DNA of 64,000 nt from an uncultured Spirochaetales bacterium (GTDB lineage Bacteria; Myxococcota_A; UBA9160; SMWR01): assembly GCA_964494795.1 (NCBI GenBank), contig CAZBSV010000005.1, positions 12,842-76,841 on the forward strand, written 5' to 3'. The translations under genes were made by a program, and so were the position numbers. A model generated the notes under the pieces. The model had not been told where the DNA came from. It did no database searches and saw nothing but the letters and a program-made list of their open reading frames with translations. Shown in pieces: positions 5,139 through 41,435 of the stretch. Numbering within the stretch: position 1 is the first letter of the stretch; each line of letters starts with the position of its first letter.

Positions 5139-5236
5139 GGTGTCGGGTTTGGCGGGGGCGTCAGCGTAGCCACCGGGAGATCCCGACGATAACCGATTGC
5201 ACCGTGTTACGTCGCTTCCGCGGATTCGGTGGTGGG

Positions 5237-6783: not shown

Positions 6784-6786
6784 CGG

Positions 6787-7308: not shown

Positions 7309-7326
7309 CCCCCAGGTCCTCGAAAC

Positions 7327-26008: not shown

Positions 26009-26956
26009 ATGAATCAGGACTTCAACCGCGACCAATGGGCGATCGTGCTCGGAGGCTCGAGCGGTTTCGGGCTCGCGACTGCCCAGAAGCTCGCCGAGCA
26101 CGGCATGAGCCTGTGCGTCGTACATCGCGATCGGCGCGGCGCCATGTCGCGCATCGAGCCCGAATTCGAGAAGATTCGCGGCACGGGCGCGGCGCTGCTC
26201 AGCTTCAACACGGACGCGCTCGATCCCGCCAAACGCGACGAGATCCTGACGGAATTGAAGCGCGCGATGGGTACGGACGGCCGAGTGCGGGTTCTGCTTC
26301 ACTCGATCGCGTTCGGTAATCTCAAGCTGATCGCACCCGAGAAGCTGGCAGCTTCGACTACGGCGCGCGACCTCGCGGAACGGCTCGGAGTTGCGGAGGA
26401 AAGCCTGAAGGCAGCGGCGGACCAACTGTTCGAGGCGGGCGCCGACGGCCTCCACACGCTGGCCGCGCGACCGACCTATCCGGATCGCTCCTACATCGAC
26501 GACGAGGATCTCGGGCGAACGATCTACAGTATGGGAACGAGCCTGCTCGGGTGGTCCCAGGTCGTGCTGGAGCGCGGCCTGTTTGCGGATGACGCGCGCA
26601 TCTTCGGTCTCACCAGCGAGGGAAACGAAGTTGCCTGGAAGGGTTACGCGGCCGTGGCGGCCGCCAAGGTGGCGATGGAGTCGATCACGCGTTCGATGGC
26701 GGTGGAACTCGCTCCGTATGGAATCCGATCCAATGTGATTCAAGCCGGTGTGACCGATACTGCCGCGCTGCAGGCGATCCCCGGCAGCCTCCAGCTCAAG
26801 GCCCAGGCCCGCCAGCGCAATCCCTTCGGGCGCCTGACGACGCCCGCTGATGTTGCCAACGTGATTTATCTGCTGTCCACGCCAGAAGCGTCCTGGATCA
26901 ATGGCGAAGTGATTCGAGTGGACGGCGGCGAGCACATCTCGGGAGTGCTGAAGTGA
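26009..26956 (+). CDS. enoyl-ACP reductase-like SDR (FabI/FabL-type signatures)
   Basis: GGSSGFGLA nucleotide loop. HSIAFG replaces the classical NNAG. Y-x6-K (YAAVAAAK) replaces YxxxK. There appears to be an extra segment between them. Confidence 0.7.
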   Translation: MNQDFNRDQWAIVLGGSSGFGLATAQKLAEHGMSLCVVHRDRRGAMSRIEPEFEKIRGTGAALLSFNTDALDPAKRDEILTELKRAMGTDGRVRVLLHSIAFGNLKLIAPEKLAASTTARDLAERLGVAEESLKAAADQLFEAGADGLHTLAARPTYPDRSYIDDEDLGRTIYSMGTSLLGWSQVVLERGLFADDARIFGLTSEGNEVAWKGYAAVAAAKVAMESITRSMAVELAPYGIRSNVIQAGVTDTAALQAIPGSLQLKAQARQRNPFGRLTTPADVANVIYLLSTPEASWINGEVIRVDGGEHISGVLK

Positions 26957-27948
26957 CGGTCTATCTCCACAGCGTCGGGCATTTTCATCCCGAGAACGAG
27001 ATTTCGAATCAATTCCTCGAAGATCTCGACATCGGAACGAACGATCAGTGGATCATCGACCGCGTCGGCATCCGCTCACGGCGCACCGTGCTACCGCTCG
27101 ACTACATCCGCGAGACCCGGAATGCCGAACCGCGGGCCGCGATGGAAGCGGCTCTCTACAGCAACGCAGAGATCGGGAGACGGGCGGCAGAACTCGCGAT
27201 TGCGAGGGCTGGTATCGAGAAGAGCGACGTCGGCATGCTGATTGGCGGGACTTCGCTGATGGACACGACGTCACCCGCCGAGTCCTGCAACATCGCCCGC
27301 GCGCTGGAACTCGAAGTGCCCTCCTTCGACATCAATTCGGCCTGCACCAGCTTCTACGTGCAGCTCTATCTGCTTTCGAAGATGCAACCCGACCTGCTTC
27401 CCGACTACATCGTTCTCGTCGTTGCGGACTGCCTCACGAAGGCGGTCGACTATTCCGATCGCTCGGCCGCCGTGTTGTGGGGCGACGGTGCTGCTGCCGC
27501 CGTGGTTTCGACGAGGCATCCGGCGCGGGCTCGGATCGAGGGGAACACCATTGCGTCGAGCCCGGCGGGAAACGACAAGGTTGTCGTTCCGCGCCTCGGC
27601 TTCTTTCATCAGGAGGGGCGAACCGTCCAGACCTTCGGCATCAAGCGGATGACACGCCTGCTCAGCAGCTTGCGCGAGCAATTCGAGGAGCCCGACCGAA
27701 GATTCAACTTCGTCGGCCATCAGGCGAATCACCGCATGCTCGAGTCGGTCTGCAAGCACTGCGACATCCCCGCCGATCGCCACTTCAGCAATGTCGAATG
27801 GTTCGGGAATACCGCGAGCGCGAGTTCCGCGTCGGTCGTGTCGATGGAGTGGGAGAAGTGGCGCGACGGTGACGATGTGGCCGTCGTAGGCGTGGGCTCC
27901 GGTTTGACCTGGTCGAGCTACCTGATCCGATTCGGAGATCTTCTGTGA
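26953..27948 (+). CDS. 3-oxoacyl-ACP synthase III (FabH-like)
   Basis: GTG start overlaps the upstream stop (GTGA). Cys in INSACTSF, His in VGHQAN, Asn in FGNTASAS. Confidence 0.85.
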   Translation: MTVYLHSVGHFHPENEISNQFLEDLDIGTNDQWIIDRVGIRSRRTVLPLDYIRETRNAEPRAAMEAALYSNAEIGRRAAELAIARAGIEKSDVGMLIGGTSLMDTTSPAESCNIARALELEVPSFDINSACTSFYVQLYLLSKMQPDLLPDYIVLVVADCLTKAVDYSDRSAAVLWGDGAAAAVVSTRHPARARIEGNTIASSPAGNDKVVVPRLGFFHQEGRTVQTFGIKRMTRLLSSLREQFEEPDRRFNFVGHQANHRMLESVCKHCDIPADRHFSNVEWFGNTASASSASVVSMEWEKWRDGDDVAVVGVGSGLTWSSYLIRFGDLL

Positions 27949-28535
27949 CCTACGAGGAGTTCCGAGATCGCAAGAGTTTTTCGAAGCAAGAGATGCTCGC
28001 ATTCGCCCACGCAAATCTCTTCACTGACGCGCCTCCCGAGTTCAACGTACAACTTCCGGCACCGCCGATGTTGATGGTCGATCGGATTCTCGAAATCCGA
28101 AGCGACGGCCCCCGGGGCCGAATCGTCGCCGAGCGCGACGTGGCGATCGACGATTGGTTTTTCCAGTGTCATTTTCGCGGCGACCCCGTTCAGCCCGGCT
28201 GCCTCGGTGTCGACGGTGTCTGGCAACTGCTGGGATTCTTTTGCGCGTGGCGCGGCGGGCTTGGATCCGGCCGAGCACTGGGCTGCGGTGAGATCGAATT
28301 CTCGGGCCAGATCCGGCCGCACGACCGCTGCGTGCGCTACGAGATCGACGTTCGCCGTTTCACCAAGATTGCCCACGCCGGAGCCACACTGGTGATCGGT
28401 GATGCAACGCTGTTCGTCGACGACGAACCGATCTACGAGATCAAGCGAGCCAAGGTCGGCACCTTCCGAGACATCGCGTACTCCGATTATCCGATGGCCT
28501 CTGAGCGTTCTCGCGGCGGAAAGATGCAGCGATGA
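27945..28535 (+). CDS. fabA: 3-hydroxyacyl-ACP dehydratase / trans-2-decenoyl-ACP isomerase
   Basis: FFQCHFRGDPVQPGCLGVDGVWQLLGFF...GRALGCGEIEFSGQI closely parallels the E. coli FabA active-site region. Confidence 0.88.
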   Translation: MTYEEFRDRKSFSKQEMLAFAHANLFTDAPPEFNVQLPAPPMLMVDRILEIRSDGPRGRIVAERDVAIDDWFFQCHFRGDPVQPGCLGVDGVWQLLGFFCAWRGGLGSGRALGCGEIEFSGQIRPHDRCVRYEIDVRRFTKIAHAGATLVIGDATLFVDDEPIYEIKRAKVGTFRDIAYSDYPMASERSRGGKMQR

Positions 28536-28990
28536 GCGGAACTCGACTGACACCCAAGGAAGTCCTGGCGCTGATCCCGCAGCGGGAACCCTTTCGCTTC
28601 ATCGACGACATCCTCGAGCTCGACGATGATCACATCGTTGGCACCTATCGGTTTCGTCCCGATGCGGATTTCTATCGCGGTCACTTTCCCGGGAATCCGG
28701 TCACACCCGGAGTCATTCTGATCGAGTCGCTCGCACAGGTAGGCATCGTCGCGCTGGGCATCTATCTGCTCGCCCAGGAGAGTGAAGCCGATACCGCGAA
28801 GATGATGACCCTATTCACCGACACGAATGTCGAATTCGCCGGGATCGTGAACCCGGGCGACCGCGTGACCATCACCGCGGAGAAGGTGTTCTTTCGCCGG
28901 CGAAAATTGCGTTCGAGGGCCGAGATGAAGCTCGATGATGGAACGCTCGTTTGTTCGGGAACTGTTTCTGGAATGGGAATCTTCAAATGA
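28532..28990 (+). CDS. FabZ-like hotdog-fold 3-hydroxyacyl-ACP dehydratase
   Basis: IPQREPFRFIDDI...FYRGHFPGNPVTPGVILIESLAQ. Confidence 0.8.
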   Translation: MSGTRLTPKEVLALIPQREPFRFIDDILELDDDHIVGTYRFRPDADFYRGHFPGNPVTPGVILIESLAQVGIVALGIYLLAQESEADTAKMMTLFTDTNVEFAGIVNPGDRVTITAEKVFFRRRKLRSRAEMKLDDGTLVCSGTVSGMGIFK

Positions 28991-30264
28991 GTGCGCGGGT
29001 GGTGGTGACGGGGATCGGTGTGCTGGCACCGAATGGCAACAACGTCCGAGACTTCGAGCTCGCGCTCCGCAAGGGGCTCTCGGGTATTCGCGTTCAAGAG
29101 AAGATGGTCGAGAGCGGCTTCGGATCGCATGTCGCGGGTATTCCCGAGGGCATCGATGAACTCGCGGAGTCGTACTTTTCCGAGGATCTCCTGCTCGCGA
29201 TGAACTCTGGGCACCGATGCGCGGCGATTGCGGGAGTGGACGCCTGGACGGATGCCGGATTCGAGCGACCGGATTCCGCTGACGATCGCGTCGACTGGGA
29301 CACCGGAGCGGTGCTGGGCACTGGGATCGGCGGCATGGATACGATCGCCAATTCGGTCGTTCCGATGACGAACGCAAAGAACGTTCGTCGACTCGGAAGC
29401 GTCGCCGTCGAACAGGTGATGTCGAGCGGGGTCTCGGCGCGTCTATCTGGCATCCTTGCATTGGGCAATCAGGTCACCACGAATTCCAGCGCGTGCAGCA
29501 CCGGCAGTGAAGCGATCTCGATGGGCGTCGAACGGATCCGCCGCGGACTCGCCAAGCGGATGTTGTGCGGAGGCGCCGAGGGCGCGAGCCATTACACCTG
29601 GGCCGGCTTCGACGCGATGCGGGTGCTCTGCCGCCGTTTCAACGCTGCACCGGAGCGTGCATCGAGACCCATGAGCGCGACGGCGGCGGGCTTCGTCCCG
29701 AGCGCGGGCGCGGGCGTGCTCATGCTGGAGAGTCTCGAGAGTGCGCGGGAACGCGGAGCGCGAATCCTCGCCGAAGTGGCCGGCTCAGCGCTCAACTGCG
29801 GTGGCCACCGAGGAGGTGGCAGCATGACGGCGCCGAATCCCGACGGGGTGAGGCGCTGCATTCAGGCTGCACTCGCCGACGCGCGGGTTGCTCCCGAAGA
29901 AGTGGGCGCGATCAATGGGCATCTGACGGCGACGAGCGCGGACCCGAAGGAGGTTCATTCCTGGGCGGCCGCTCTCGGCTGCAGACCTGACGATCTGCCC
30001 CCGATCACATCGACCAAGTCGATGATTGGTCACGCCCTTGGCGCGGCTGGCGGAATCGAGGCGGTTGCTTGCGTGTTGATGCTCACTGGAGGATTCATAC
30101 ATCCTTCGATCAATTGCGAGGATGTGCACCCCGACATCGAGCCGTACGCGGCGTCGATTCCGCACACCGCCCTTCAGGCCCCGGACCTTCGAGTCGTGGT
30201 GAAGGCGGGTTTCGGTTTTGGGGATGTCAACGCATGTCTGGTGTTTCGAAAGTGGAACGAATAA
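28987..30264 (+). CDS. 3-oxoacyl-ACP synthase I/II (FabB/FabF type)
   Basis: ATG at 28987 (ATGA overlap) gives MSARVVVTGIGVLAPNG. Cys in SSACSTGSEAI, His in NGHLTATSA and KSMIGHALGAAG. Confidence 0.9.
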   Translation: MSARVVVTGIGVLAPNGNNVRDFELALRKGLSGIRVQEKMVESGFGSHVAGIPEGIDELAESYFSEDLLLAMNSGHRCAAIAGVDAWTDAGFERPDSADDRVDWDTGAVLGTGIGGMDTIANSVVPMTNAKNVRRLGSVAVEQVMSSGVSARLSGILALGNQVTTNSSACSTGSEAISMGVERIRRGLAKRMLCGGAEGASHYTWAGFDAMRVLCRRFNAAPERASRPMSATAAGFVPSAGAGVLMLESLESARERGARILAEVAGSALNCGGHRGGGSMTAPNPDGVRRCIQAALADARVAPEEVGAINGHLTATSADPKEVHSWAAALGCRPDDLPPITSTKSMIGHALGAAGGIEAVACVLMLTGGFIHPSINCEDVHPDIEPYAASIPHTALQAPDLRVVVKAGFGFGDVNACLVFRKWNE

Positions 30265-30359: not shown

Positions 30360-30608
30360 GTGGATCAAACCGAGATCTTTGAGAAAGTCGTCAAGATTCT
30401 AACCCCCTATGTGAAGAACCAGGAGGCGCTCAAGGGCGTCTCGTTGAAGACCCATATCCTCGATGACCTGAAAGTGAACTCTGCCCGGCTGGTAGACGTC
30501 GTGCTCGAGTTCGAGGATGCGTTCGACATCGAGATCGATGACGACGACGTCGACAAGGTCGAGACCGTCGGAAATGCGGTCGAGTTGATCGAGGCGAAAA
30601 TCGGATAG
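30360..30608 (+). CDS. acyl carrier protein, atypical serine context
   Basis: AAGGAG at 30347-30352 precedes the GTG start. 82 aa and acidic. The phosphopantetheine site reads DLKVNSARLVD (NSA instead of DSL). Confidence 0.8.
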   Translation: MDQTEIFEKVVKILTPYVKNQEALKGVSLKTHILDDLKVNSARLVDVVLEFEDAFDIEIDDDDVDKVETVGNAVELIEAKIG

Positions 30609-31372
30609 TGGCGCTTCGGCCCATCGCCCCACTGTCGGCGGCTGTGCGCCGAAAGTTGGCGCTACAGCGCGAGATTTCGCGACTGCTGTCGCCCCTGACG
30701 ATTCCGCTGGTTGGGATCGCGCTGTGCGGTGTGCTGCGTTACCGCATCGAGAACCTCCGCGGCCTTCGACGCGAGTATCGCCGGATCTGCCTCGAGCGGG
30801 ACGGGCCGCTGATGATCTGCGCGAATCATCTCACGATGATCGACTCGCTCGTAATCGCGTGGGCGTTGGGATCTCCATGGTGGTATTTCCGACACTTCAG
30901 AACGCTGCCCTGGAACGTTCCGGAGCGGTCGATTTTTGCGGTGACGCGATTCGCGCGAATGGCGATCTACGCATTCAAGTGCGTTCCCGTGGAGCGCGGT
31001 GGCGATCGATCGGAAGTCACGCAAGTGCTGGCTCGCCTGGCGTATGCGGTCTCCAACTGCGAAGTGGCTCTGATCTTTCCCGAGGCGGGGCGGAGCCGAA
31101 CCGGACGTGTGGATCCGGATTTGGCGGCTTCGGGAGTCGGGCGGGTCTATCGAAGCGTTGCGGGTTGCAGGGTGCTCTGTGTGTATCTGAGAGGCGATCA
31201 CCAGGATGGTTATTCGGATCTGCCTGTGCGGGGCGAGCGTTTTCGCGGATCCGTTTCGGTCATCGAGCCCAAGACGAGCTGCCGAGGCCTCCGCGCTTCG
31301 CGGGACATTTCGCGGCAGATCGCGCAACGGCTCGCCGAGATGGAGCAGGAGTACGTTGATGCTCGGAAATGA
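30608..31372 (+). CDS. PlsC-family (lysophospholipid/glycerolipid) acyltransferase
   Basis: N-terminal TM. HX4D motif CANHLTMIDS. Motif III is IFPEAGRSRTG. Confidence 0.75.
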   Translation: MALRPIAPLSAAVRRKLALQREISRLLSPLTIPLVGIALCGVLRYRIENLRGLRREYRRICLERDGPLMICANHLTMIDSLVIAWALGSPWWYFRHFRTLPWNVPERSIFAVTRFARMAIYAFKCVPVERGGDRSEVTQVLARLAYAVSNCEVALIFPEAGRSRTGRVDPDLAASGVGRVYRSVAGCRVLCVYLRGDHQDGYSDLPVRGERFRGSVSVIEPKTSCRGLRASRDISRQIAQRLAEMEQEYVDARK

Positions 31373-31973
31373 CATCGTCGATCTCCGCGATCCTGAATCG
31401 TCGCTCGTGGCGTGCCACGCGCGTTTCGATCGGCGCGTGTTTTGCCCTGGGGAATTCGAAGCAATCTCGAGCGGCCACACGGACGTGCAGCGGCGCTGGA
31501 TCCTGTGGTCGGCAAAAGAGGCCGCCTTCAAGGCTGTGCGTCGGGAACACCCAGGGGCCGCGTTTTCTCCCGCGCGCTTCGTCGTCGATCTCGATCGCTC
31601 GCTCTGCGGATCGGTCCGATACGGAATTCACCGCTTGCCGGTGCGGATCCGGATCGACGGGGACTGCGTGCACGCGGTCGTGAGCGAAAATCAAGCTCAC
31701 ACCGGATTGTTTTGGGGCGCGCGTCGGCTGACGACGGCCGAACTTCGCGACTCGAGTCAAGCAGTTCGCCGGTTTGCGATCGCGTCGATTGCAGCCGAAC
31801 TGCGCCTTGCGATTTCGGATCTGCGGATCGAGAAGGCCCGCCGGATTCCCGAGTTGATCGTCTCCGGCGAGCGCGCACCCGTGGCGCTTTCGCTGTCACA
31901 CCATGGCTCGTACGCGGGTTTCGCGTGCCGCGATCCGCGCATCGACCAAGCCCGCCCGAGCGTTCTCCATTGA
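31359..31973 (+). CDS. 4'-phosphopantetheinyl transferase superfamily protein
   Basis: Internal ATG at 31359 gives MLGNDIVDL. WSAKEAAFKA motif. ~204 aa. Confidence 0.7.
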   Translation: MLGNDIVDLRDPESSLVACHARFDRRVFCPGEFEAISSGHTDVQRRWILWSAKEAAFKAVRREHPGAAFSPARFVVDLDRSLCGSVRYGIHRLPVRIRIDGDCVHAVVSENQAHTGLFWGARRLTTAELRDSSQAVRRFAIASIAAELRLAISDLRIEKARRIPELIVSGERAPVALSLSHHGSYAGFACRDPRIDQARPSVLH

Positions 31974-34900
31974 GTCTCGCTACCGCCATTCGCCGGCTCG
32001 CCATCCTCAATCGCGGGGAGGCGGCGATGCGCTGCATTCGCTCCGTCAAGGCGCTCAAGGCGCTCGAGGGTTCGGATCTCGAATCGATCGCGATCTACAC
32101 TGACGTCGATCGCGACGCGCCCTTCGTCCGCCACGCGGACCACGCCATTCGACTCGAGGCGCCCAACGGAGCGGTTGCCGCCTACCTCGACCACGATCGC
32201 TTGATCGATCTTCTCGTGCGCGCCGGTGCGGACGCCGTCTGGCCCGGCTGGGGGTTCGTCGCGGAAGACCCCATTTTCGTGGATCGAGTCAGCGCGCTGG
32301 GGATTCGATTCCTGGGGCCATCCGGGGATGTGATGCGCGCTCTCGGCGACAAGATCGACGCCAAGCGAATTGCCGAAGATGCGGGAATTCCGGTCGTGGC
32401 GTGGAGCGGTGGCGCTCTCGCAGACGAGAATGCCGCCGCGCGCTGCGCGGCGGAACTCGGCTACCCGGTGGCCGTCAAGGCCGCTGCGGGGGGTGGTGGT
32501 CGCGGTATCCGGATGGTGGAGTCGGAGTCCGAGCTCGCGGCCGCGTTCCGTTCGGCGGCCGCGGAGGCGAAGGCGGCTTTCGGCAGCGATCGCCTGTTCA
32601 TCGAACGCAAGCTTTCGCGCGGTCGGCACATCGAGGTCCAAATCGCCGCCGATGCGAAGGGTTCTGCAATGTCACTCGGATGTCGCGACTGTTCGGTGCA
32701 GCGTCGGCACCAGAAATTGATCGAGGAAGCTCCGCCTCCGAGACTCTCGCAGAAACTTCGCGATGAACTCGAGCAAGCCGCTGTTCGTCTGGTCGAATAC
32801 GTCGGGTACGTGGGCGTGGGAACCGTGGAATTCCTCGTCGTCGACCAGGCGTATTCGTTTCTCGAAGTGAATCCGCGTCTGCAGGTCGAGCATGGGATTA
32901 CCGAGGAGTTGACGGGAATCGATCTGGTGCAACTCCAGATTCGCATCGCGAGGGGAGAACCGCTGCCGGAGCTCCGAGATTCCGGAGGCTGGGTTGCGAT
33001 CGAAGCCCGCGTATGTGCAGAAGACCCCCAGGCGGACTTTCTTCCGACACCCGGCCGGATCGCGCTATTCGATCCCGCACTCGGGCTGCGACTGAGGGTC
33101 GACTCCGGAGTTTCCGCCGGATGCCGCGTGCCTGCGGAGTTCGATTCGCTGATCGCGAAGATCATCGCCACGGGTGAGACGCGTGAAGAGGCGCGCGCTC
33201 GACTCGTCTGTGCGCTCACGGATTTCGAGCTCGTGGTCGCGGGAGGGGCGAGCAACAAGGGTTATCTGATCGATATCCTCGAGACTCCTGAATACCGCAG
33301 GGGCGAGTTCGACACCCAGTGGTTGGATCGCACGCCCGAGCTTCGGTTGGGCTCCGACGCTCACGCCGTCGAGGCCCTGGTCGCCGCGTCAATCCTCGCC
33401 TACCAGCGCTCGCGCGACGCGGCGCGGCAGAAATTCTATGCGGACCCGGCGACGCTTTCGCCGACGTCGATCCCGCCTTCGACCGGCCAGCGGATCGATC
33501 TCACAGCCGGCGCGGAGAGTTACCGCCTCGAGGTTTTCGCGGTGGGCGCCTGGCGCTACCGGGTCCACCTCGACGGTCGCGTTGCCGTCGCGACGCTCAG
33601 CGATGAGCGCGAGAACTCCGCGATCCTCGAACTGGGCGGTCGAAACCTCCGCGTATTGCACGATGTGTCGGAGCGCGGCCTGCGGATCGAGATCGAGGCG
33701 CATCCCTACCGCTTCACGAGTGAACTCGCCGGCCAGGTTCGCTCGGGCACTCCCGCCGTCGTGATCGCTCTGCAGGTGGCGGTCGGAAACCCGGTGAAGG
33801 CGGGCCAATCTCTCGGCCTGCTCGAGGCGATGAAGAGCGAAATCGACTTCCGCGCTCCCATCAGTGGCGTCGTCAAAGAAATCTGTGTGCGAAGCGGGCA
33901 GCAGGTGAGCGCGGGAGAGCTGCTCTTGATCATCGAAGCCGAGACGCGTGAGGCATTCGAATCGCCGCTTCAAAAGCGTCTGATGCTGACACCCGAAGTG
34001 GATTCGCTGGATCTCTTCTTCTCCGACGAAGTTGGAGGTGAGATCGTCGTGCAGAATCTGAAAGTCGTCGAGCGAGCGGATGCGGCCGCTCGACGCGCTG
34101 CGATCGATGCTGCGCGAGGCGAGATTCGGCGCATCCTGATGGGTTATGACGTGAATCCCGCACGAGGCATGCGCCTCGTCGCGTTGCTCGAGTGCCCGCT
34201 ACCCGAGGGCCTCTCGGCTGGATTTTGCAGCGAGCTCGCCGAGATCCGTCACGAGTTGTCGATCTTCTCGGATGTCGAACAGCTCTTCGTGCGGGCTCCG
34301 CACGCGTCCGAGACCGGTGTGGTTGGCCCGTCGAATCACGCGCGCTTGCGGGCCTACATGCGAAGGATGGCTACCGAGGGTTCCGGGATGCCGGAAGCTT
34401 TCCTGGCGATCCTGCGTCGCGCGCTCGTCCACTATGGAATCAACGATCTCAAGGCTTGCGACAGTCTCGAGCGCGCAGTCCTGCGCATCGTGGCCAGCCA
34501 GTTGTCACCCGATCTGCGGCGGCGTCTCGTCTTGGAGATCCTGAAAAGAATTCACGCTCTCGCAGAATCAGGTGTTTCGCTCGGAGGCGACGAACGGCTC
34601 CGCGATTCCCTGTCTTGCATTTCGAGTCTGCGCGGTCTGGTGCCCGACGCGCTGGCCGATCGCGCGATCGAAGCCAGCTATACGATCTTCGAAGGTCCCG
34701 CCTTGGAGCGCCAAGCGGAGCAGACCACCCAGGAGGTGGAAAGCTGGCTCGCCGACGCCGAATTCGTGCCCAGCCAACCTCCCAGAGCGGTGTTGGTTCA
34801 TCTTGCCAACGCACCCCAGAACGTTTTTGATCGCGTCGGTCGTTGGCTGGCGGATTCGAATCCACTGCGCCGTTCGGTCGCCGTGGCGGCACATATCAGC

Positions 34901-37558
34901 CGTTTCTACGCGCCCAATAAACCTCCGACGCACACGACCACGGTCATCGGGTCGACCTACGTTGAACGGCTCCACCGGGAGGACGGTCGAACGCTGCTCG
35001 GGAGCGTTACCAAGCCCGACCAGATGCTCCAGACGCTCGAGCGGCTCGCCCAAGCATCGCGTGAATTCGGTTCCGAAAAGCGAATCGATGCGATCGAATT
35101 GCTGGTTCCCGTCGGAGATCGCCGAGATCTCGAAGGCCTGCGCGACGAGATCGCATCCGCGCTCTCCGAGCGCTTGCATGCTGACCGCCTCAGCCTGACT
35201 GCACTCGTCGAAAACGACCGACCCGAGCACTTCAGTTTCGTGCAGACCGCTCGAGGTTGGGAGGTGATGAAAGAACTTTACGGTCTGCATCCAGAGACAG
35301 CCGGGCGCGTCGATCTCCACCGACTGAGAGCATTCGACTGCGAGCGCTTGGATTCTCCAGACGACATCTATTGCTTCCACCTGCGGTCGCGAGAAATTTC
35401 CGGTGACGAGCGGATCTTCGTACTCGCCGACTTTCGAGGTCGCTCTCCCGAGCACGGCCACGAGGCTACGCTGCATCTCGCATCGTTCGAGCGCGTGTTC
35501 TTCGACGCCGCGCGTACGTTGCGAAGCCACCTCGGCTTGCGGGATCCGAGTCGAAGACTGCAGTGGAACCGCATCGCGGTCTTCACTTCGCCGGCGATCT
35601 TCCTCGACGACCAGGTTGCCGCGCGCTTCGCGCGGCGCCTGGCGCCCGCCACGCGACATCTCGGCCTCGAGAAGGTGATCGCGCGGCTGAACGTACTCGA
35701 TCGCGCTCACCCGGAGAAGCGCGCCAGGCCGTTCGAGGTCGTGATCGCCGACCCAACCGGGAGCAACATGGAGCTCTCGTGGCGCGAACCGCATCTGGAT
35801 CCCCTGGAGCCGGCCCGGGATTACGAGCGAAAGGTCGTCGAGGCGCGCCGCCGCCGGCTCGTCTATCCCTATGAGATCATCCGTCTGCTGACCGGCGGAT
35901 CGTCGAACAACGGCGTCGCGAACCCGGAAGCCGCACCGGACTTGCCGCCCGGAAAATTCGAGGAGTTCGACCTGGCGCGCGACGCAGCCGCACCGACGGC
36001 GGCAAGCGTCGCGGGTCGCCCCTACGGGATGAATGCGAGTTCCGTCGTCTTCGGCGTGATCGAGACGCCGACGGAAAAAGTCCCGGAAGGCATGAAGCGT
36101 GTACTCGTTCTGTCGGACCCGACGATTGGAATGGGCGCGTTGGCGGCGCCGGAGTGCGATCGGATCATCGCGGCAATCGACCTCGCGGAGAGCATGAAGC
36201 TTCCGCTCGAATGGTTGCCGGTGTCGAGCGGCGCGCGGATCGCGATGGACAGCGGCACGGAAAATCTCGACGCGACGGCGAGAGTGGTGAGGCGCATCAT
36301 CACTTTCACGCAGTCGGCGGGTGTCATCCACATCATCGTCCAGGGCGTCAACGTCGGTGCGCAGAGCTATTTCGACGCGTTGGCGACGATGCTCCAGCAC
36401 ACTCGCGGCGTGCTGATCATGACCGCGTCGGCTTCGATGCTGCTCACGGGTCGGGCCGCTCTCGAAGCGGCGGGTGCGGTGTCGGCCGAAGACGACACCG
36501 CGATCGGCGGCTTCGAGCGGATCATGGGACCCAATGGTGAGGCCCAGTTCTACGCGCGCAATCTCGTGGACGCCTACCGGATCCTCTACGACCACTACCG
36601 CTTCACGTTCGTTCCGCCCGGCGAGGGCGCGCCCCGGCTGTTTGCGACCAGCGACCCGGAGACGCGCACGATCACCGAGTATCCCTGCGAGCCGGAAGAG
36701 GGACACGACTTCCGCAAGCTCGGCGAGATCTTCGATCGGGATTCGAATCTCGACCGCAAGCGCCCGTTTTCGATGCGCGCGCTGATGGCCGGCGTGATCG
36801 ATCAAGACGGCGGCCAGCTGGAGCGCTGGCGCGCCTGGCAGGGCGCGGAGATGGCGATCATCTGGGATGCGCATCTCGGCGGCTTTCCGGTCAGTCTGAT
36901 CGGCATCGAAAGCCGCAGCCTGGCGCGGGAAGGCTACAGCCCGACCGACGGCCCATCCGTGTGGAGCGGCGGCACCCTGTTTCCGCTCTCGTCGAAGAAG
37001 CTCGCGCGCGCGCTCAACGCGGCGAGCGGGAATCGACCGGTGGTTCTGCTCGCCAATCTATCGGGATTCGACGGGTCGCCCGAGTCGATGCGGAAATTGC
37101 AGCTCGAGCACGGCGCAGAAATCGCCCGGGCCGTGGTCAATTTCGCAGGCGCGATCGTCTTCCTCGTGGTGTCGCGATACCACGGCGGCGCTTACGTGGT
37201 CTTCTCGGGCAGCTTGAACGAGGGCCTGCGCGCCGCTGCGCTCACGGGTTCTTTCGCGTCGGTGATCGGTGGAGCGCCGGCGGCTGCGGTCGTATTCACC
37301 CGAGAAGTGCGAGCGCGCGCGGCGAAAGATCCGCGGATCGCAAAACTCCGACGGGAAACCGGAGCGAGCGGCCGCGACCGACTCGAAATTGCCTGGAAGG
37401 AAGTCCTGCTCGAGAAACAGGCCGAACTGGCGTCCGAATTCGATTCGATCCACAGCGTGGAGCGAGCTCTCGAAGTCGGCTCTCTCGAAGCGATCGTCGA
37501 CCCCGAGAACATGCGCAGTTACCTGATCGGAGAACTTCGAAAAGCAGCGGCGCGATGA
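31970..37558 (+). CDS. single-chain multidomain acyl-CoA carboxylase (biotin carboxylase - BCCP - carboxyltransferase), LCC-like
   Basis: In-frame TTG at 31970 (TTGA overlap with the PPTase stop). The first 186 codons of the track ORF look non-coding or shadow. BC: ILNRGEAAMRCIRS, KAAAGGGGRGIRMV, EVNPRLQVEHGITE. BCCP: LGLLEAMKSEIDF. CT: LSDPTIGMGALAAPE, LLANLSGFDGSPESM, SRYHGGAYVVFS. Confidence 0.85.
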   Translation: MSLATAIRRLAILNRGEAAMRCIRSVKALKALEGSDLESIAIYTDVDRDAPFVRHADHAIRLEAPNGAVAAYLDHDRLIDLLVRAGADAVWPGWGFVAEDPIFVDRVSALGIRFLGPSGDVMRALGDKIDAKRIAEDAGIPVVAWSGGALADENAAARCAAELGYPVAVKAAAGGGGRGIRMVESESELAAAFRSAAAEAKAAFGSDRLFIERKLSRGRHIEVQIAADAKGSAMSLGCRDCSVQRRHQKLIEEAPPPRLSQKLRDELEQAAVRLVEYVGYVGVGTVEFLVVDQAYSFLEVNPRLQVEHGITEELTGIDLVQLQIRIARGEPLPELRDSGGWVAIEARVCAEDPQADFLPTPGRIALFDPALGLRLRVDSGVSAGCRVPAEFDSLIAKIIATGETREEARARLVCALTDFELVVAGGASNKGYLIDILETPEYRRGEFDTQWLDRTPELRLGSDAHAVEALVAASILAYQRSRDAARQKFYADPATLSPTSIPPSTGQRIDLTAGAESYRLEVFAVGAWRYRVHLDGRVAVATLSDERENSAILELGGRNLRVLHDVSERGLRIEIEAHPYRFTSELAGQVRSGTPAVVIALQVAVGNPVKAGQSLGLLEAMKSEIDFRAPISGVVKEICVRSGQQVSAGELLLIIEAETREAFESPLQKRLMLTPEVDSLDLFFSDEVGGEIVVQNLKVVERADAAARRAAIDAARGEIRRILMGYDVNPARGMRLVALLECPLPEGLSAGFCSELAEIRHELSIFSDVEQLFVRAPHASETGVVGPSNHARLRAYMRRMATEGSGMPEAFLAILRRALVHYGINDLKACDSLERAVLRIVASQLSPDLRRRLVLEILKRIHALAESGVSLGGDERLRDSLSCISSLRGLVPDALADRAIEASYTIFEGPALERQAEQTTQEVESWLADAEFVPSQPPRAVLVHLANAPQNVFDRVGRWLADSNPLRRSVAVAAHISRFYAPNKPPTHTTTVIGSTYVERLHREDGRTLLGSVTKPDQMLQTLERLAQASREFGSEKRIDAIELLVPVGDRRDLEGLRDEIASALSERLHADRLSLTALVENDRPEHFSFVQTARGWEVMKELYGLHPETAGRVDLHRLRAFDCERLDSPDDIYCFHLRSREISGDERIFVLADFRGRSPEHGHEATLHLASFERVFFDAARTLRSHLGLRDPSRRLQWNRIAVFTSPAIFLDDQVAARFARRLAPATRHLGLEKVIARLNVLDRAHPEKRARPFEVVIADPTGSNMELSWREPHLDPLEPARDYERKVVEARRRRLVYPYEIIRLLTGGSSNNGVANPEAAPDLPPGKFEEFDLARDAAAPTAASVAGRPYGMNASSVVFGVIETPTEKVPEGMKRVLVLSDPTIGMGALAAPECDRIIAAIDLAESMKLPLEWLPVSSGARIAMDSGTENLDATARVVRRIITFTQSAGVIHIIVQGVNVGAQSYFDALATMLQHTRGVLIMTASASMLLTGRAALEAAGAVSAEDDTAIGGFERIMGPNGEAQFYARNLVDAYRILYDHYRFTFVPPGEGAPRLFATSDPETRTITEYPCEPEEGHDFRKLGEIFDRDSNLDRKRPFSMRALMAGVIDQDGGQLERWRAWQGAEMAIIWDAHLGGFPVSLIGIESRSLAREGYSPTDGPSVWSGGTLFPLSSKKLARALNAASGNRPVVLLANLSGFDGSPESMRKLQLEHGAEIARAVVNFAGAIVFLVVSRYHGGAYVVFSGSLNEGLRAAALTGSFASVIGGAPAAAVVFTREVRARAAKDPRIAKLRRETGASGRDRLEIAWKEVLLEKQAELASEFDSIHSVERALEVGSLEAIVDPENMRSYLIGELRKAAAR

Positions 37559-38256
37559 ACACGAGAGAGATCATCAGCGACCCGCGAAGGCCGTCCAGCA
37601 GCGGGCGAGAGGAAAAGAAGGCCGAAGTACGCCGCCGGATCCTCGAGGCCGCAAAGGAGATCTTCTTTCGGGACGGATTCATGGGCGCGAACCTCGACGA
37701 GATCGCAGAACTCGCGGGTGTCGCCAAGGGGACGCTCTACCGCTACTTCGACAACAAGGCGCAGATCTACCTCGCGGTTCTCTCGCGCAAAGCCCAGAGA
37801 TTCGAGAAGAAACTGCACGCCGCGCTCGACCCGAAGGCCACGCCGGCCGAGGCACTCGTTCGAGTGAGTCGTTTCTACTTTCAGCATTACGTCGAAAATC
37901 CGGACTATTTCCAGATCTTCTGGGCGATCGAGAACCAGGCCGTGATCGGCGACCTGCCGCCCGAACTCGTGGAAGAGGTGGTCCGACTCTGGGAAGAGGG
38001 CCTCGGGCTGTTGGCCGGGATCGTCGAAAGGGGCATTGCCGAGGGTGTGTTCGCCCCGTGTGACGCGTGGGAGGTTGCGAGCATCCTTTGGACGCTCGCG
38101 AATGCGATCATTCGAACCGAGCGCTCCTCCGCGCATCGGAGCCTGCGACGCAGCGCTCTGGATACGTTCTTCGACGATGCGATCGCGCTGGTGCTACGCG
38201 GCCTCGCCACGCCCGCGACTTGCGAGTCGCAAATGACGAACGCCCCGCGGGTTTGA
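37555..38256 (+). CDS. TetR family transcriptional regulator
   Basis: ATG at 37555 (ATGA overlap). The HTH is ILEAAKEIFFRDGFMGANLDEIAELAGVAKGTLYRYF. Confidence 0.88.
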   Translation: MNTREIISDPRRPSSSGREEKKAEVRRRILEAAKEIFFRDGFMGANLDEIAELAGVAKGTLYRYFDNKAQIYLAVLSRKAQRFEKKLHAALDPKATPAEALVRVSRFYFQHYVENPDYFQIFWAIENQAVIGDLPPELVEEVVRLWEEGLGLLAGIVERGIAEGVFAPCDAWEVASILWTLANAIIRTERSSAHRSLRRSALDTFFDDAIALVLRGLATPATCESQMTNAPRV

Positions 38257-38304: not shown

Positions 38305-38922
38305 TCAGCGCTTCGGGCGCATCCTGCGCCCAACCCCATACAGGCCACCCAGTCCCATACCGAGCAGGGAAAGCGTACTCGGCTCGGGCACGACCGCGAA
38401 GGCGCTGTTGAACGTGGTCGTTGGGGTGATGACATTGTAGAAACCATCCAATATGTCGTCCGTAGGAGCGAAGTCGCCCGAGGTGATCTGAAAGGATCCC
38501 GCGGTCGCGGTGTCGAGATGGAACACGACGGTCCCCAGCAAATAGCTCTGTCCGGCCAACAGACCGTCCGGACCAGGCGGAGCAAACACCGTAGCGTTGA
38601 TGTTTCTGATTTGGGTTCCGGTATCCGTGGTAGCTCCGAGTCCGAGCGGCAGAGGGCCTCCCTGGAAGCTCTGGAAGCTGACGACCGAAAAATCCGCAAC
38701 CAGCGCCGTGTAGTCGATACTCATACCGCCGCCCGCCGAACCATTCGCACCTGCTGTGAGGATCACGTTCAGCGTGATGTTGCTCGACGCAAGGGCAATG
38801 CTCGTGGTGTTTGTTCCAGAGGCCGCCCAGATCAAATCGATCGTTGCGCTCGCACTGGCCGCGCCGGCGAAGCCCGCCAGTGCGATGAGTCCACCAGCCA
38901 TACCGACCAAGAATTTCCGCAT
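38305..38922 (-). CDS. PEP-CTERM sorting-domain protein 1
   Basis: ATG at 38922 preceded by GAGGAGA. The signal peptide ends AGAASASA. The C-terminus is VPEPSTLSLLGMGLGGLYGVGRRMRPKR (PEP motif, TM, basic tail). Confidence 0.85.
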   Translation of the reverse strand: MRKFLVGMAGGLIALAGFAGAASASATIDLIWAASGTNTTSIALASSNITLNVILTAGANGSAGGGMSIDYTALVADFSVVSFQSFQGGPLPLGLGATTDTGTQIRNINATVFAPPGPDGLLAGQSYLLGTVVFHLDTATAGSFQITSGDFAPTDDILDGFYNVITPTTTFNSAFAVVPEPSTLSLLGMGLGGLYGVGRRMRPKR

Positions 38923-38997
38923 CTTCCTATCTCCTCGTTCCTCGTGTTCCACGACGTAAATCGTGCAAAGTGTTTCGAACCACACAGCGGTCTTCGA

Positions 38998-39384
38998 CTA
39001 CGGGCAGGCAGTCGTGCCCGTTGTCGTACCCGACGGGCCGGGGACGACGCCAAAATTCAGCGCAAAAAACGCATACTGCGCGAAGCCCACGGTGCAACCC
39101 GGGATCGTACCGGTGTGACATTTTTCCTGGTCGTTGGTGCCGAAGGCGAGGGCAAACTGACCGAAGTCGCTGAATCCAGGAACGCCATTGTTGTCGTAAT
39201 CCGCGTCGCAGCGGTTTCCGCACAGATCTCCGTCCGTGTCGTCCTGGGCCGAATTCAAGGCTGTTCTACAGTTGTCCTGAAAATCGTAGAGACCATCGCC
39301 GTCAGTGTCGGTCGGGGGGCCAGCCAACGCGGGCGCCCCCCAGAACAACAAGACCAAAGTGCTTGCAAGTAGCATGCGTTTCAT
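38998..39384 (-). CDS. small secreted Cys-rich protein with TSP3-type Ca-binding repeat and dockerin-like segment, paralog 1
   Basis: 128 aa. MKRMLLASTLVLLFWGAPALA / GPPTDTDGDGLYDFQDNC...DDTDGDLCGNRCDADYDNNGVPGFSDFGQF...PGPSGTTTGTTACP. Confidence 0.7.
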   Translation of the reverse strand: MKRMLLASTLVLLFWGAPALAGPPTDTDGDGLYDFQDNCRTALNSAQDDTDGDLCGNRCDADYDNNGVPGFSDFGQFALAFGTNDQEKCHTGTIPGCTVGFAQYAFFALNFGVVPGPSGTTTGTTACP

Positions 39385-39707
39385 GGGGGGGCTCTCCTCT
39401 TTATTCACGCCTAAGTGCGCGGCGTGCCTCTCTTGTTCGGCCGTTCGCAGAAGAGCCTTTAGGCATAATGTCACCCCAATCACGGAAGCCGGCTGAAAGA
39501 CACGGACGAGCCGGGGCTGAAAGACGAGATCCAGCAAAGGCGAAGAATTACAGCCACGCCGTGACGCGATCTCCACGCGTCAGAAGCGCGTATGTCGAAG
39601 GAGAGCGGAAACGCGCGCGCGTTAGATCCGAGGTCAGGTCGGACGTCAGAGGTCAAAGGTCAGGTCAGAGAAGAGGGCGCCGTGGAACGGGGCAAGCAGT
39701 GTGGCGC

Positions 39708-39839
39708 GGGAGAATGGTGGGAGAAGAAGGGAGAATGGCGGGAGAAGAAGACGGGGGACGCATCGGAGTGGAGGCGTCGACGGGAGAGAAGAGGAGTTCA
39801 GCGAGACGCAACTTGAATGCAAGACGCAACTTGAATGCA
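39708..39839. repeat. two adjacent tandem duplications (21 bp x2 and 18 bp x2) in a purine-rich spacer
   Basis: GGGAGAATGGTGGGAGAAGAA / GGGAGAATGGCGGGAGAAGAA at 39708-39749. AGACGCAACTTGAATGCA x2 at 39804-39839. Confidence 0.9.
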
Positions 39840-39870
39840 AAACGCCCCGGGTCGAAACCCGGGGCGTTTT
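39839..39870 (-). terminator. rho-independent-type terminator (bidirectional hairpin)
   Basis: AAAACGCCCCGGG-TCGAAA-CCCGGGGCGTTTT is a 13-bp stem flanked by A and T runs. It lies 35 nt downstream of PEP-CTERM gene 2. Confidence 0.8.
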
Positions 39871-39904
39871 GATCTGGTCGAGCGCTACGCTAGGAAAACT
39901 TGAT

Positions 39905-40528
39905 CTAGCTCCTGCGGCTGCGCCCTGCGAGCGCGACGCCACCCAGTGCCATCACGAGCAGGGAGATGGCTCCCGGCTCCGGGGCATTGATCAGGCTGGC
40001 GCTGTTCAGCGTAAGCGTCGCGTTCGATATGGTATCGCCAGCGAAGTTCAGAATGCCGTCATTAGGCCCCATGACCGGCCGGAACGTAAACGTGCCGTTT
40101 CCGAGCGCGCTCTTTCGGAACGTGATCGTTCCGAGCTGGGCGGTTCCGCCCGCGCCTTGTATGCCGGTGCCGACACCTAGGAAGCAGACGCAGACCGCGT
40201 TGAGGCCCACAATCTGCGATCCCGAGTCGGTCGGCAGTCCGAGAGTCGACGGGAACACATTTGATGGAATGTTCGGTGTGTTCGCGAATGAGACGACCGC
40301 CACCTTGCTCAGTGCGTTGCTGTAGTCGACGCTCACAACGCCGCCCGACGAGCCGCCCGCGCCCGTGGTGAGCCTCACGTTCAGGACGATTGTGCCCGAC
40401 AGCGGGACGTCTTGAATCGTGTTAGTGCCGTTGGCCCAAAGAAGGTCGATCGTGGCGCTCGCACTGGCTGCACCGGCAAACCCCACCAGTGCAACCAAGC
40501 CCACTGCTGCTGTAAAGAATTTCCGCAT
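39905..40528 (-). CDS. PEP-CTERM sorting-domain protein 2
   Basis: MRKFFTAAVGLVALVGFAGAASASATIDLLWA shares the N-terminal ATIDL(I/L)WA with protein 1. The C-terminus is APEPGAISLLVMALGGVALAGRSRRS. Confidence 0.85.
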   Translation of the reverse strand: MRKFFTAAVGLVALVGFAGAASASATIDLLWANGTNTIQDVPLSGTIVLNVRLTTGAGGSSGGVVSVDYSNALSKVAVVSFANTPNIPSNVFPSTLGLPTDSGSQIVGLNAVCVCFLGVGTGIQGAGGTAQLGTITFRKSALGNGTFTFRPVMGPNDGILNFAGDTISNATLTLNSASLINAPEPGAISLLVMALGGVALAGRSRRS

Positions 40529-40610
40529 TGTCCTGTCTCCTCGATTAACTCAGAGTGTTCTGATCAAGATCAGAGTGGTTTGATTGCAATGTTTCCCGAA
40601 GCTCCTACGG

Positions 40611-41012
40611 CTACAACGGGCAAGCCACCGTTCCCGGTGTTGTTCCAGACGGACCGGGCGCCTTGAGGTAGAGCTGACCGAATCTGCCGAAGTCGGAAAC
40701 ATTAACCGTGCAGCCGGGAACGACGTGGCCGATGGCGATGCAAAAGCTCTCCGCGCCCGTTTTGCCGTACTTTTGGCCGAACAAACCGAAATCCGTAACG
40801 TTCGTGTTGCCTAGTTGGTTAAAATCGGCGTCGCAGACGTTTCCGCACTTATCCGAGTCGCTGTCATCCTGAGCCGGATTCTTCGCAATTTTGCAGTTGT
40901 CGGCTATATCTACGATCCCGTCGCTGTCCGTGTCGGGTCCGGCGGTGCCCGCGAATGCGGGGCTTCCCCACAGCATGAACGCGAACATCGCTGCCAATAT
41001 CGTCAATCTCAT
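40611..41012 (-). CDS. small secreted Cys-rich TSP3/dockerin-like protein, paralog 2
   Basis: 133 aa. MRLTILAAMFAFMLWGSPAFA / GTAGPDTDSDGIVDIADNC..DDSDSDKCGNVCDADFNQLGNTNVTDFGLFGQKYG...VNVSDFGRFGQLYL..PGPSGTTPGTVACPL. Confidence 0.7.
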   Translation of the reverse strand: MRLTILAAMFAFMLWGSPAFAGTAGPDTDSDGIVDIADNCKIAKNPAQDDSDSDKCGNVCDADFNQLGNTNVTDFGLFGQKYGKTGAESFCIAIGHVVPGCTVNVSDFGRFGQLYLKAPGPSGTTPGTVACPL

Positions 41013-41129
41013 TTTAAGCTCCTTGTCGATGGCGCTGACCAGTTTCAGTTCTCAATTCCCAGTTCTTCTGACTTTCGACCGATTGCATTTCGCCAGGGGA
41101 CATTAAGCCCGAATTCGCTCCAGGTTGTC

Positions 41130-41145
41130 CAGTCAAAAATGACTG
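41130..41145. promoter_or_regulatory. perfect 16-bp palindrome CAGTCAAAAATGACTG in the conserved leader; candidate operator
   Basis: 6-4-6 palindrome about 125 nt upstream of the start at 41012. An identical copy lies at 55604-55619. Confidence 0.35.
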
Positions 41146-41201
41146 TTTGCCCAAAGAATTTCGCGAGCCCGATCAACCGATCAATCCGCAGATAGAAGAC
41201 G

Positions 41202-41250
41202 CTCCCATTTCTCCCATTTACTCGCTTTCTCGCTTTCTCGCTTTCTCGCG
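41202..41250. repeat. microsatellite-like repeats (9 bp x2, 8 bp x3.5)
   Basis: CTCCCATTT x2, then CTCGCTTT x3 plus CTCGCG. They sit exactly where similarity between duplication copies A and B ends. Confidence 0.9.
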
Positions 41251-41407
41251 ATCTCTGGCAGGGCCAACCAGAATCCCCTGCGCGCATCGCACTTGGGCCC
41301 GATTATGTGCAAACGCGATGCCACTGGCCAACTGAAAGGTAAGTCATTGATCTTAAAGGAAGTTTTATATCTGGCGAAGGAGCCGGGTGTGAACGCGCGT
41401 TCCTGAA

Positions 41408-41427
41408 TAGGGAAAAGCTTTTCCCTA
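41408..41427 (-). terminator. perfect 20-bp palindromic hairpin just downstream of the exosortase stop
   Basis: TAGGGAAAAGCTTTTCCCTA lies 9 nt after the stop codon at 41436. Confidence 0.6.
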
Positions 41428-41435
41428 GGGCTGCG

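Follow-up and report, generated by a model that had tools for sequence, protein, structure and literature searches.

The carboxylase gene and its reading frame

The DNA considered here is a stretch of 64,000 nucleotides (hereafter the window, to which all positions without a locus prefix refer) from an uncultured bacterium deposited as a member of the Spirochaetales and placed by GTDB in Myxococcota_A (contig CAZBSV010000005.1 of assembly GCA_964494795.1). Within a tightly packed lipid operon in this window lies one long gene whose product is probably a homomeric, eukaryote-type acetyl-CoA carboxylase (ACC) that supplies malonyl-CoA to the type II fatty-acid synthase encoded beside it. The open reading frame (ORF) runs uninterrupted on the plus strand from a TTG at 31970 to a TGA at 37556-37558 and specifies 1862 amino acids, with a calculated mass of 203 kDa. 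A preliminary description, made from the DNA letters, had reported a single ORF of about 1860 codons lying between a phosphopantetheinyl transferase (PPTase) gene and a TetR gene and overlapping each by 4 nt. All of this is borne out: the five peptide strings quoted there (KAAAGGGGRGIRMV, EVNPRLQVEHGITE, LEAMKSEIDF, LLANLSGFDGSPESM and SRYHGGAYVVFS) are present in the translation, the PPTase stop (TGA 31971-31973) overlaps the TTG at 31970 as TTGA, and the ACC stop at 37556-37558 shares an ATGA with the start of the TetR gene (ATG 37555). The biotin carboxylase, biotinyl, and carboxyltransferase domains that it named are likewise matched by Pfam profiles. The gene and the domains assigned to it are listed below.

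31970..37558, plus strand: predicted single-chain eukaryote-type acetyl-CoA carboxylase gene (ORF and translation; start from 1862-aa homologues and the conserved N-terminus)
31970..33334, plus strand: biotin carboxylase (BC), residues 1-455 (Pfam Biotin_carb_N 7-122, CPSase_L_D2 of the ATP-grasp type 127-334, Biotin_carb_C 345-453)
33335..33724, plus strand: BT (BC-CT interaction) domain, residues ~456-585 (AlphaFold model, Foldseek)
33725..33937, plus strand: BCCP (biotinyl) domain, residues ~586-656 (Pfam Biotin_lipoyl 590-655)
33938..36004, plus strand: central domain (CD), residues 657-1345, folded part ~678-1308 (AlphaFold, Foldseek, weak Pfam ACC_central)
36005..37555, plus strand: carboxyltransferase (CT), N and C subdomains, residues 1346-1862 (Pfam Carboxyl_trans 1374-1856)

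Taken mechanically from stop to stop, the frame could begin as early as a GTG at 31412, and the stretch from there to the TTG at 31970 overlies the PPTase gene in a different frame. The TTG is backed by the lengths of the homologues, many of which have exactly 1862 residues and dozens 1860-1870, and by the family consensus, which starts about 6 residues ahead of a conserved 'IxRLAIVNRGEAA'. An identical database protein (P0001) is annotated from an ATG at 32027 and is 19 residues shorter, at 1843 aa. That start loses the N-terminal IRRLAILNRGEAA (window 31970-32029), which holds the conserved first strand and the NRGE motif; consequently, it is probably a start-codon mis-call. The Shine-Dalgarno-like GGGGAGG that precedes ATG 32027 is merely the codons for R-G-E.

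Domain architecture

The domains are arranged in the order BC, BT, BCCP, CD, CT on one polypeptide. The best matches of the BC part among the sequences of the Protein Data Bank (PDB) are the alpha subunits of methylcrotonyl-CoA carboxylase (MCC) and BC chains (E 7e-115 to 1e-96), and these bacterial chains score 388-357 bits, as against 307 bits for yeast ACC. No NCBIfam model reaches its cutoff on the whole protein, the only matches being at the level of BC.

The preliminary description had taken the regions between the recognized domains to be long linkers. When both were modeled with AlphaFold on a 41-sequence family alignment, confident folds were obtained for each, so that the idea of disordered spacers was rejected and the two regions are instead read as a BT domain and a central domain. 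The model of residues 456-656 (pLDDT 85.8) consists of a long helix (8-36 of the model), an eight-stranded barrel, and then the BCCP sandwich, a helix and barrel being the BT fold as described for propionyl-CoA carboxylase (PCC) and human ACC (PMC4833862). In Foldseek, the model is matched by the BT-BCCP regions of yeast and human ACC, on which it superposes best (TMq 0.57-0.63), and by those of MCC and PCC alpha subunits.

The model of residues 657-1345 (pLDDT 83.4, pTM 0.81) has a helical N-terminal part, a helical linker, two alpha/beta subdomains, and a low-confidence tail of about 37 residues. In a Foldseek comparison with the PDB, every one of the 31 matches at E<=1e-3 is a central-domain structure of yeast, human, or Chaetomium (C. 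thermophilum) ACC, with about 700 aligned columns and a best E of 5.7e-20, while the next match, at E 3e-3, is noise. At the level of sequence, identity to the eukaryotic central domains is 13-17%, and Pfam ACC_central is matched at residues 836-981 under its cutoff (E 2.7e-4; 19.8 bits versus 23.2); precomputed ACC_central matches exist for many homologues of the protein. Judged from the modeled fold, the region is thus shown to be homologous to the eukaryotic ACC central domain, and the protein would carry a large domain of that kind, with counterparts of CDN, CDL, and the two CDC subdomains.

The preliminary description had also called the carboxyltransferase a double one of eukaryotic style. 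When CT, or CD together with CT, is compared with PDB sequences, the 16 best matches are CT domains of eukaryotic ACCs (C. thermophilum, yeast, and human; E 7e-17 to 1e-11), and bacterial beta subunits of PCC, ACC, GCC, and MCC rank below them. A CT of eukaryotic style is therefore supported, and the domain may belong to the eukaryotic group (group V of Livieri et al.), the scores of these sequence matches being low (~62 bits). A special closeness of the Myxococcota proteins to eukaryotes was considered and rejected: against eukaryotic ACC structures, the CD-CT part of the window protein scores 62 bits versus 71.5 for a Nonomuraea protein and 85.5 for an acidobacterial one.

Comparison with known carboxylases

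The closest characterized enzyme type is SACE_4237 of Saccharopolyspora erythraea (Livieri et al. 2019, PMC6491548). This ~200-kDa protein is homologous to eukaryotic ACC from end to end, the central region included, and shows activity only when it forms a homodimer (~400 kDa). Its substrates are acetyl- and propionyl-CoA and not palmitoyl-CoA, and it is essential, providing malonyl-CoA for fatty-acid synthesis. The window ACC resembles it in being one chain of ~200 kDa with BC, BCCP, a central region, and a CT that may be of the eukaryotic group, and in its presumed supply of malonyl-CoA. The two were compared by description; actinobacterial proteins of the same type (Nonomuraea, L039, and Mycobacterium sp., L060) are ~40% identical to the window ACC and fall on the other main branch of the crude neighbor-joining (NJ) tree described below. 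In addition, the window gene comes from an uncultured member of the Myxococcota and is built into a type II fatty-acid synthase operon.

With the eukaryotic ACCs (yeast Acc1, human ACC1/2, and C. thermophilum) the protein shares its domain order and its BT and CD folds, and its CT is nearest to theirs among solved structures. It differs in being shorter (1862 aa versus 2211-2407 residues for the PDB chains), with a compact CT of 517 aa as opposed to CT constructs of 737-805 residues, in the 13-17% identity of its CD, and in a BC that scores nearer to bacterial MCC-alpha and BC than to yeast ACC; nor is there evidence in the window ACC for phospho-regulatory loops or filament formation. The multi-subunit ACCs (AccA/AccB/AccC/AccD, or the alpha/beta/epsilon enzymes of actinobacteria) have the same chemistry and the same BC, BCCP, and CT catalytic motifs, whereas the window enzyme fuses all functions into one chain and adds the BT and central domains. 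Separate polypeptides of the AccABCD type are not what is found here, as the single uninterrupted ORF is collinear in more than 100 homologues.

Family and distribution

Residues 470-1862 were used as the query in a word-indexed search, which gave 498 matches, and the best 120 were inspected. These are mostly full-length proteins of 1840-1900 aa with 56-86% identity, and where a source is named, it is a metagenome-assembled genome (MAG) of Myxococcota, Myxococcales, Deltaproteobacteria, or Proteobacteria. Alignments to more than 100 full-length homologues (1840-1900 aa) are collinear and extend over 99-100% of the query. An exhaustive HMMER search of 1.84 billion sequences with the CD alone gave 812 cluster representatives (50% identity) at E<=1e-3, 136 of them at E<=1e-30, and the longest protein among the top 150 matches has no more than 1905 aa. 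When genomes representing species were scanned with the CD, at least 63 loci were found (L numbers in this text denote loci of relatives); among those listed are Myxococcota-type MAGs (39-55% CD identity), Binatia, many Acidobacteriota, Actinomycetota (Nonomuraea monospora, Mycobacterium spp., Ilumatobacter, and Dermatophilaceae), Woeseiaceae, KSB1, Vicinamibacterales, and Thermoanaerobaculia.

In a crude NJ tree built from 54 full-length proteins, rooted at its midpoint and without support values, there is a clade A of Myxococcota type, which includes the window ACC and whose members are at least 55% identical to it, and a clade B at ~40% identity. Four MAGs labeled 'uncultured Spirochaetales/Spirochaetaceae bacterium' (L008, L009, L014, and L029) carry clade-A ACCs that are 57-61% identical to that of the window, and three of the four have the full gene module described in the next section; GC3 in L009 is ~0.85. 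It seems that either these taxonomic labels are questionable or there has been a transfer of the module between phyla. In a Polyangiaceae MAG, a 769-aa Carboxyl_trans protein (L059:5141-7450) is encoded directly upstream of a 1704-aa, CD-bearing ACC homologue (L059:7955-13069).

The operon and its conservation

The ACC gene is one of ten plus-strand genes between 26009 and 38256 that are packed with overlaps or short gaps. The other nine are these.

26009..26956, plus strand: FabI/FabL-type enoyl-ACP reductase, 315 aa, first gene of the operon (Pfam adh_short_C2; best NCBIfam match FabL, below cutoff; Yx6K)
26953..27948, plus strand: FabH-like ketoacyl-ACP synthase III (KAS III), 331 aa (FabH 188 bits; Cys-His-Asn triad intact; synteny)
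27945..28535, plus strand: FabA, of the 3-hydroxydecanoyl-ACP dehydratase/isomerase type, 196 aa (NCBIfam NF003509 equivalog, 210.6 bits, cutoff 124; His and Asp present)
28532..28990, plus strand: FabZ-like / ApeI-like dehydratase, 152 aa (profile matches; orthologues with ApeI-like and ApeP-like Pfam matches)
28987..30264, plus strand: FabF/FabB-like elongating ketoacyl-ACP synthase (KS), 425 aa (Cys-His-His)
30360..30608, plus strand: acyl carrier protein (ACP), 82 aa (ORF; NCBIfam ACP models below cutoffs; orthologues with PP-binding matches)
30608..31372, plus strand: PlsC-like acyltransferase, 254 aa (Pfam Acyltransferase; HX4D motif)
31359..31973, plus strand: PPTase, 204 aa from ATG 31359 (Pfam ACPS)
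37555..38256, plus strand: TetR-family regulator, 233 aa (best, sub-threshold matches to the acyl-CoA-responsive regulators FadR and FasR)

The same gene order is found beside homologues of 57-61% identity whose flanks are unrelated, and of the 19 loci that represent clade A in the tree, 16 have the module immediately upstream of the ACC by tblastn. The enoyl reductase gene is among those conserved upstream of the ACC in relatives, and the PPTase orthologue of L001 (205 aa) likewise overlaps the ACC gene by 4 nt. For the reciprocal view of this linkage, the PlsC-like protein served as bait in a search of metagenome contigs (best 80 of 338 relatives). Where at least 1.5 kb of DNA followed the bait, an ACC BC domain was present within 2.5 kb in 34 of 35 loci, and where at least 1.8 kb preceded it, a KS was present in all 37. 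Thus, the module almost never occurs without the ACC, and co-inheritance of the ACC with the type II fatty-acid synthase gene set is shown to be near-obligate. The sole exception among the 35 is L111, a 3065-bp metagenome contig with PlsC-like and PPTase genes, in which the BC domain is missing despite ~1.6 kb of further DNA.

The content of the module varies among relatives. A FabG-like ketoreductase (KR) gene lies between the FabA and FabZ-like genes in L002 (L002:6418-7146) and in L003 and replaces FabA in L001 (L001:5911-6642), the PPTase is absent from the modules of L002-L004 and L008, and the TetR gene is kept downstream of the ACC in close relatives only (L005, L069, L077, L079, L087, and L135). 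L009:3244-14157 and L001:130-16449 share the same arrangement of a helicase (RNase_T + Helicase_C_2), a KR-type short-chain dehydrogenase/reductase (SDR), the ACC, and an M24 peptidase; in L009, the ~6-kb segment from FabI to PPTase is absent between the SDR and the ACC, a clean presence/absence polymorphism in which the ACC is retained.

Most clade-B loci have, immediately ahead of the ACC start, the end of an ORF on the same strand that is at least 2,590 aa long. In the three megasynthase ORFs that were checked, the domain order is PfaA-like in every case, with KS, acyltransferase (AT), one or more ACPs, KR, and a dehydratase (DH) of the polyketide synthase type. The loci with such an ORF are L022, L024-L026, L028, L030, L032, L034, L035, L039, L042, L044, L048, L050, L052, L055, L058, L060, and L066, at roughly positions 1-7900 of each, and their hosts are Acidobacteriota, Actinomycetota, Woeseiaceae, KSB1, and one member of the Polyangiaceae. 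A gene for an 'ACC complex' has been noted between pfaA and a PPTase gene in the Type R 'secondary lipid' cluster of Koribacter versatilis (Shulse & Allen 2011, PMC3098273). The window operon is like that cluster in having an ACC gene and a PPTase inside a lipid-synthase cluster, and the arrangement in the clade-B loci matches this pfaA-ACC-PPTase cluster; in the clade of the window, however, the ACC is partnered by dissociated type II enzymes and a PlsC-like acyltransferase rather than by a type I megasynthase.

A scan for promoters and terminators between 25400 and 38800 gave no promoter-like sites and fewer terminator-like sites than shuffled sequences, and is uninformative. Downstream of the lipid operon, at 38305-42995 on the minus strand, a PEP-CTERM protein and an exosortase EpsH/EpsI gene are encoded, as is also the case in a 63%-identical relative (L004:19587-22656), and an M18 aminopeptidase and a family III CoA-transferase are nearby in both. 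The window's M18 aminopeptidase gene (24410-25723, in opposite orientation) is situated between the operon and an acyl-CoA dehydrogenase gene at 22119-23801 (plus strand; up to 560 aa, N-terminal boundary uncertain), ~2 kb upstream of the operon.

Catalytic motifs and substrate

The predicted biotinyl-lysine is K622 (33833-33835), within LEAMKSEIDF. In the 41-sequence family alignment, M621, K622, and E624 are invariant, and the residue that follows the lysine gives AMKM in 35 sequences, AMKT in 3, and AMKS or VMKS in 3, with Ser limited to the window ACC and two close relatives. AMKS in place of the usual AMKM, to which the preliminary description had drawn attention, is thus present as a minor lineage variant (3 of 41 relatives), and its reading as a functional peculiarity was rejected as a family trait, AMKM being the consensus. 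The BC glycine loop and ExNxRxQVEH motif are unchanged across the family, and the GGGGRG loop, K170, H220, K249, E287, E299-N301-R303-Q305-V306-E307, and R347 are invariant in the 41 relatives; these residues presumably correspond to K159, H209, K238, E276, E288, N290, R292, Q294, V295, E296, and R338 of Escherichia coli BC. In the CT, the motifs SSGARIAMDSG, ANLSGFDGSPESM, and SRYHGGAYVVFS are conserved in 54 bacterial homologues from several phyla, and SSGARI of the N subdomain resembles the eukaryotic NSGARI. In terms of sequence, the motifs expected of an active carboxylase are therefore shown to be intact in the window ACC.

In other carboxylases, the residue after the GGAY oxyanion motif biases selectivity: an Asp at this site (D422 in Streptomyces PccB) restricts the enzyme to propionyl-CoA, while an Ile (I420 in AcCCB) permits acetyl-CoA (PMC7835884). 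The window ACC has a Val after GGAY (HGGAYV) that is invariant across the bacterial family and whose equivalence to D422/I420 follows from motif alignment; such a Val would fit, as a hint, with acceptance of acetyl-CoA. From the type of its CT, this Val, and partner enzymes that use malonyl-ACP, we infer that the enzyme would convert acetyl-CoA to malonyl-CoA.

Role of the carboxylase and rival explanations

Given all of these observations, it is proposed that the window ACC is a homomeric, eukaryote-type acetyl-CoA carboxylase (BC, BT, BCCP, CD, CT) whose malonyl-CoA is made in step with, and for, the linked type II synthase, a reading that is considered probable. By analogy with yeast ACC and SACE_4237, the enzyme would work as a dimer. 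Its BC domain would carboxylate the biotin on K622 of the BCCP, using ATP and bicarbonate, and the BCCP would then swing to the CT site, where transfer of the carboxyl to acetyl-CoA (possibly to propionyl-CoA too) would yield malonyl-CoA, the non-catalytic central domain keeping BC and CT in the correct geometry. The ACC gene would be co-transcribed with, and translationally coupled to, the FabI/L, FabH, FabA, FabZ-like, KS, ACP, PlsC-like, and PPTase genes, and production of malonyl-CoA would therefore be co-expressed with the synthase. FabH and KS are decarboxylating condensing enzymes that use malonyl-ACP. What the synthase makes on its own ACP is probably a (mono)unsaturated acyl chain, which it would then incorporate as an ester into a glycerolipid. 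In the lineage of the window, the downstream FadR/FasR-like TetR protein probably closes an acyl-CoA-sensing feedback loop, although, with FadR and FasR matches below cutoff, this regulatory role is put forward as conjecture. Since malonyl-CoA is a diffusible pool, a 'dedicated' supply can mean only one that is co-regulated.

Several points weigh against this proposal. No FabD (malonyl-CoA:ACP transacylase) is present in the window module or in any module copy compared, and the KR found in some relatives' modules is lacking from the window copy; consequently, the module is not fully self-sufficient. Furthermore, the ACC is kept without the module in L009, L015, and L017, the surroundings in the latter two being unrelated, and because the gene persists in this way, its role may be broader than serving the operon. 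Finally, acetyl-CoA activity in the Myxococcota clade is assigned by likeness, the actinobacterial proteins of the same type being ~40% identical, and the CT, at 62 bits, has little similarity to eukaryotic CTs of solved structure.

These considerations lead to the main competing explanation, that the enzyme is the organism's general, possibly its only, acetyl-CoA carboxylase and its neighbors the main fatty-acid synthase rather than a specialized pathway. SACE_4237 is essential and feeds primary fatty-acid synthesis, which by analogy suggests a broader role for this type of enzyme; the ACC is retained in the loci just mentioned, in L009 between the same flanks as in L001; and no second BC or CT paralogue is present within the 64-kb window, the span of genome that was searched. 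However, the module brings along a divergent ACP (scoring under the acpP cutoffs), a PPTase, and a PlsC-like acyltransferase of its own, but no FabD and often no FabG, a pattern typical of an accessory lipid pathway that leans on the housekeeping fatty-acid synthase. This suggests an accessory pathway, and the housekeeping explanation, while it has to be taken seriously, is considered unlikely. It is improbable that the enzyme is a short-chain carboxylase without specificity for acetyl-CoA, acting mainly on propionyl- or butyryl-CoA to give methylmalonyl- or ethylmalonyl-type extenders for a branched lipid. SACE_4237 does have a similar Km for propionyl-CoA and acetyl-CoA, and a hydrophobic residue at the D422/I420 position accompanies promiscuity in AcCCB-type enzymes; yet the partners are of the FabH, FabF, FabA, and FabZ types, among which nothing points to the handling of methyl branches, and carboxyltransferases of eukaryotic type belong to acetyl-CoA enzymes.

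[quoted passage not shown] That the enzyme is tied to the lipid operon is probably correct, given the conserved linkage, and a single-chain bacterial biotin-dependent acyl-CoA carboxylase adjoining a KAS III-like gene does recall LCC; the LCC assignment itself is contradicted by the architecture. The LCC chain is about 120 kDa, whereas the window protein is 203 kDa, with BC first, CT last, and a folded CD of ~630 residues. LCC, which prefers long chains, has no central domain, forms a homohexamer, and differs in domain order and in CT group, which is group III of Livieri et al. (Livieri 2019, PMC6491548; Hunkeler 2016, PMC4833862), so that the assignment fails and was rejected. None of the 46 PDB matches to the CT at E<=10 is a chain named as LCC, the name of the LCC entry in that copy of the PDB being unconfirmed. 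In addition, the CT appears to be of eukaryotic-ACC type, SACE_4237, the characterized bacterial enzyme of this type, is inactive on palmitoyl-CoA, and the KAS III scores 188 bits as FabH, with its triad kept, versus 30 bits for the DarB/StlD head-to-head family. A long-chain substrate thus finds no support in the sequence, and an LCC-type enzyme is very improbable here. As for an artifact, in which a mis-assembled or frame-fused ORF joins ordinary subunit genes, nothing speaks for it except the unusual length, whereas more than 100 independent full-length collinear homologues are available from NCBI, ENA, JGI, and Logan assemblies, 54 of these homologues representing distinct species-level genomes, and the region between BCCP and CT folds as a confident domain in the AlphaFold model. 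With 99-100% of the query covered in those homologues, a chance ORF or an assembly fusion is ruled out, and this reading is effectively refuted already.

Significance

In 2016 the ACC central domain was described as unique to eukaryotes, and the first bacterial enzyme with such a domain was reported from one actinomycete in 2019 (PMC6491548). This kind of enzyme has therefore been known since 2019, and its architecture is no longer surprising to specialists. For the window itself, the yield is modest, consisting of a corrected enzyme class and start codon. In the literature searched, no description was found of a multidomain ACC from Myxococcota, of its abundance there and its near-obligate joining to a type II fatty-acid synthase/PlsC module, or, save for a passing mention in 2011 (PMC3098273), of the parallel PfaA-like linkage in other phyla.

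Taken together, the results indicate that the eukaryotic-style ACC architecture is common in uncultured Myxococcota and occurs also in Acidobacteriota, Binatia, Actinomycetota, and other phyla, and that most of the related loci that were examined show physical linkage of the gene to lipid synthases. These compact bacterial versions, at ~200 kDa, of a major drug and herbicide target could serve structural and engineering work, and each offers a one-gene source of malonyl-CoA for metabolic engineering. They also add lineages that are required in any account of the origin of eukaryotic ACC. A bolder hypothesis, unlikely as it stands, is that the CD-bearing ACC originated in bacteria, where it served self-contained lipid-synthase modules as their built-in malonyl-CoA supplier and co-evolved with the type II set in Myxococcota and, in Acidobacteriota and Actinomycetota, with PfaA-like type I megasynthases, that eukaryotic ACC descends from such a module, and that the Myxococcota module makes a distinct membrane lipid. 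If so, the central domain would be an ancient bacterial invention and not a eukaryotic one.

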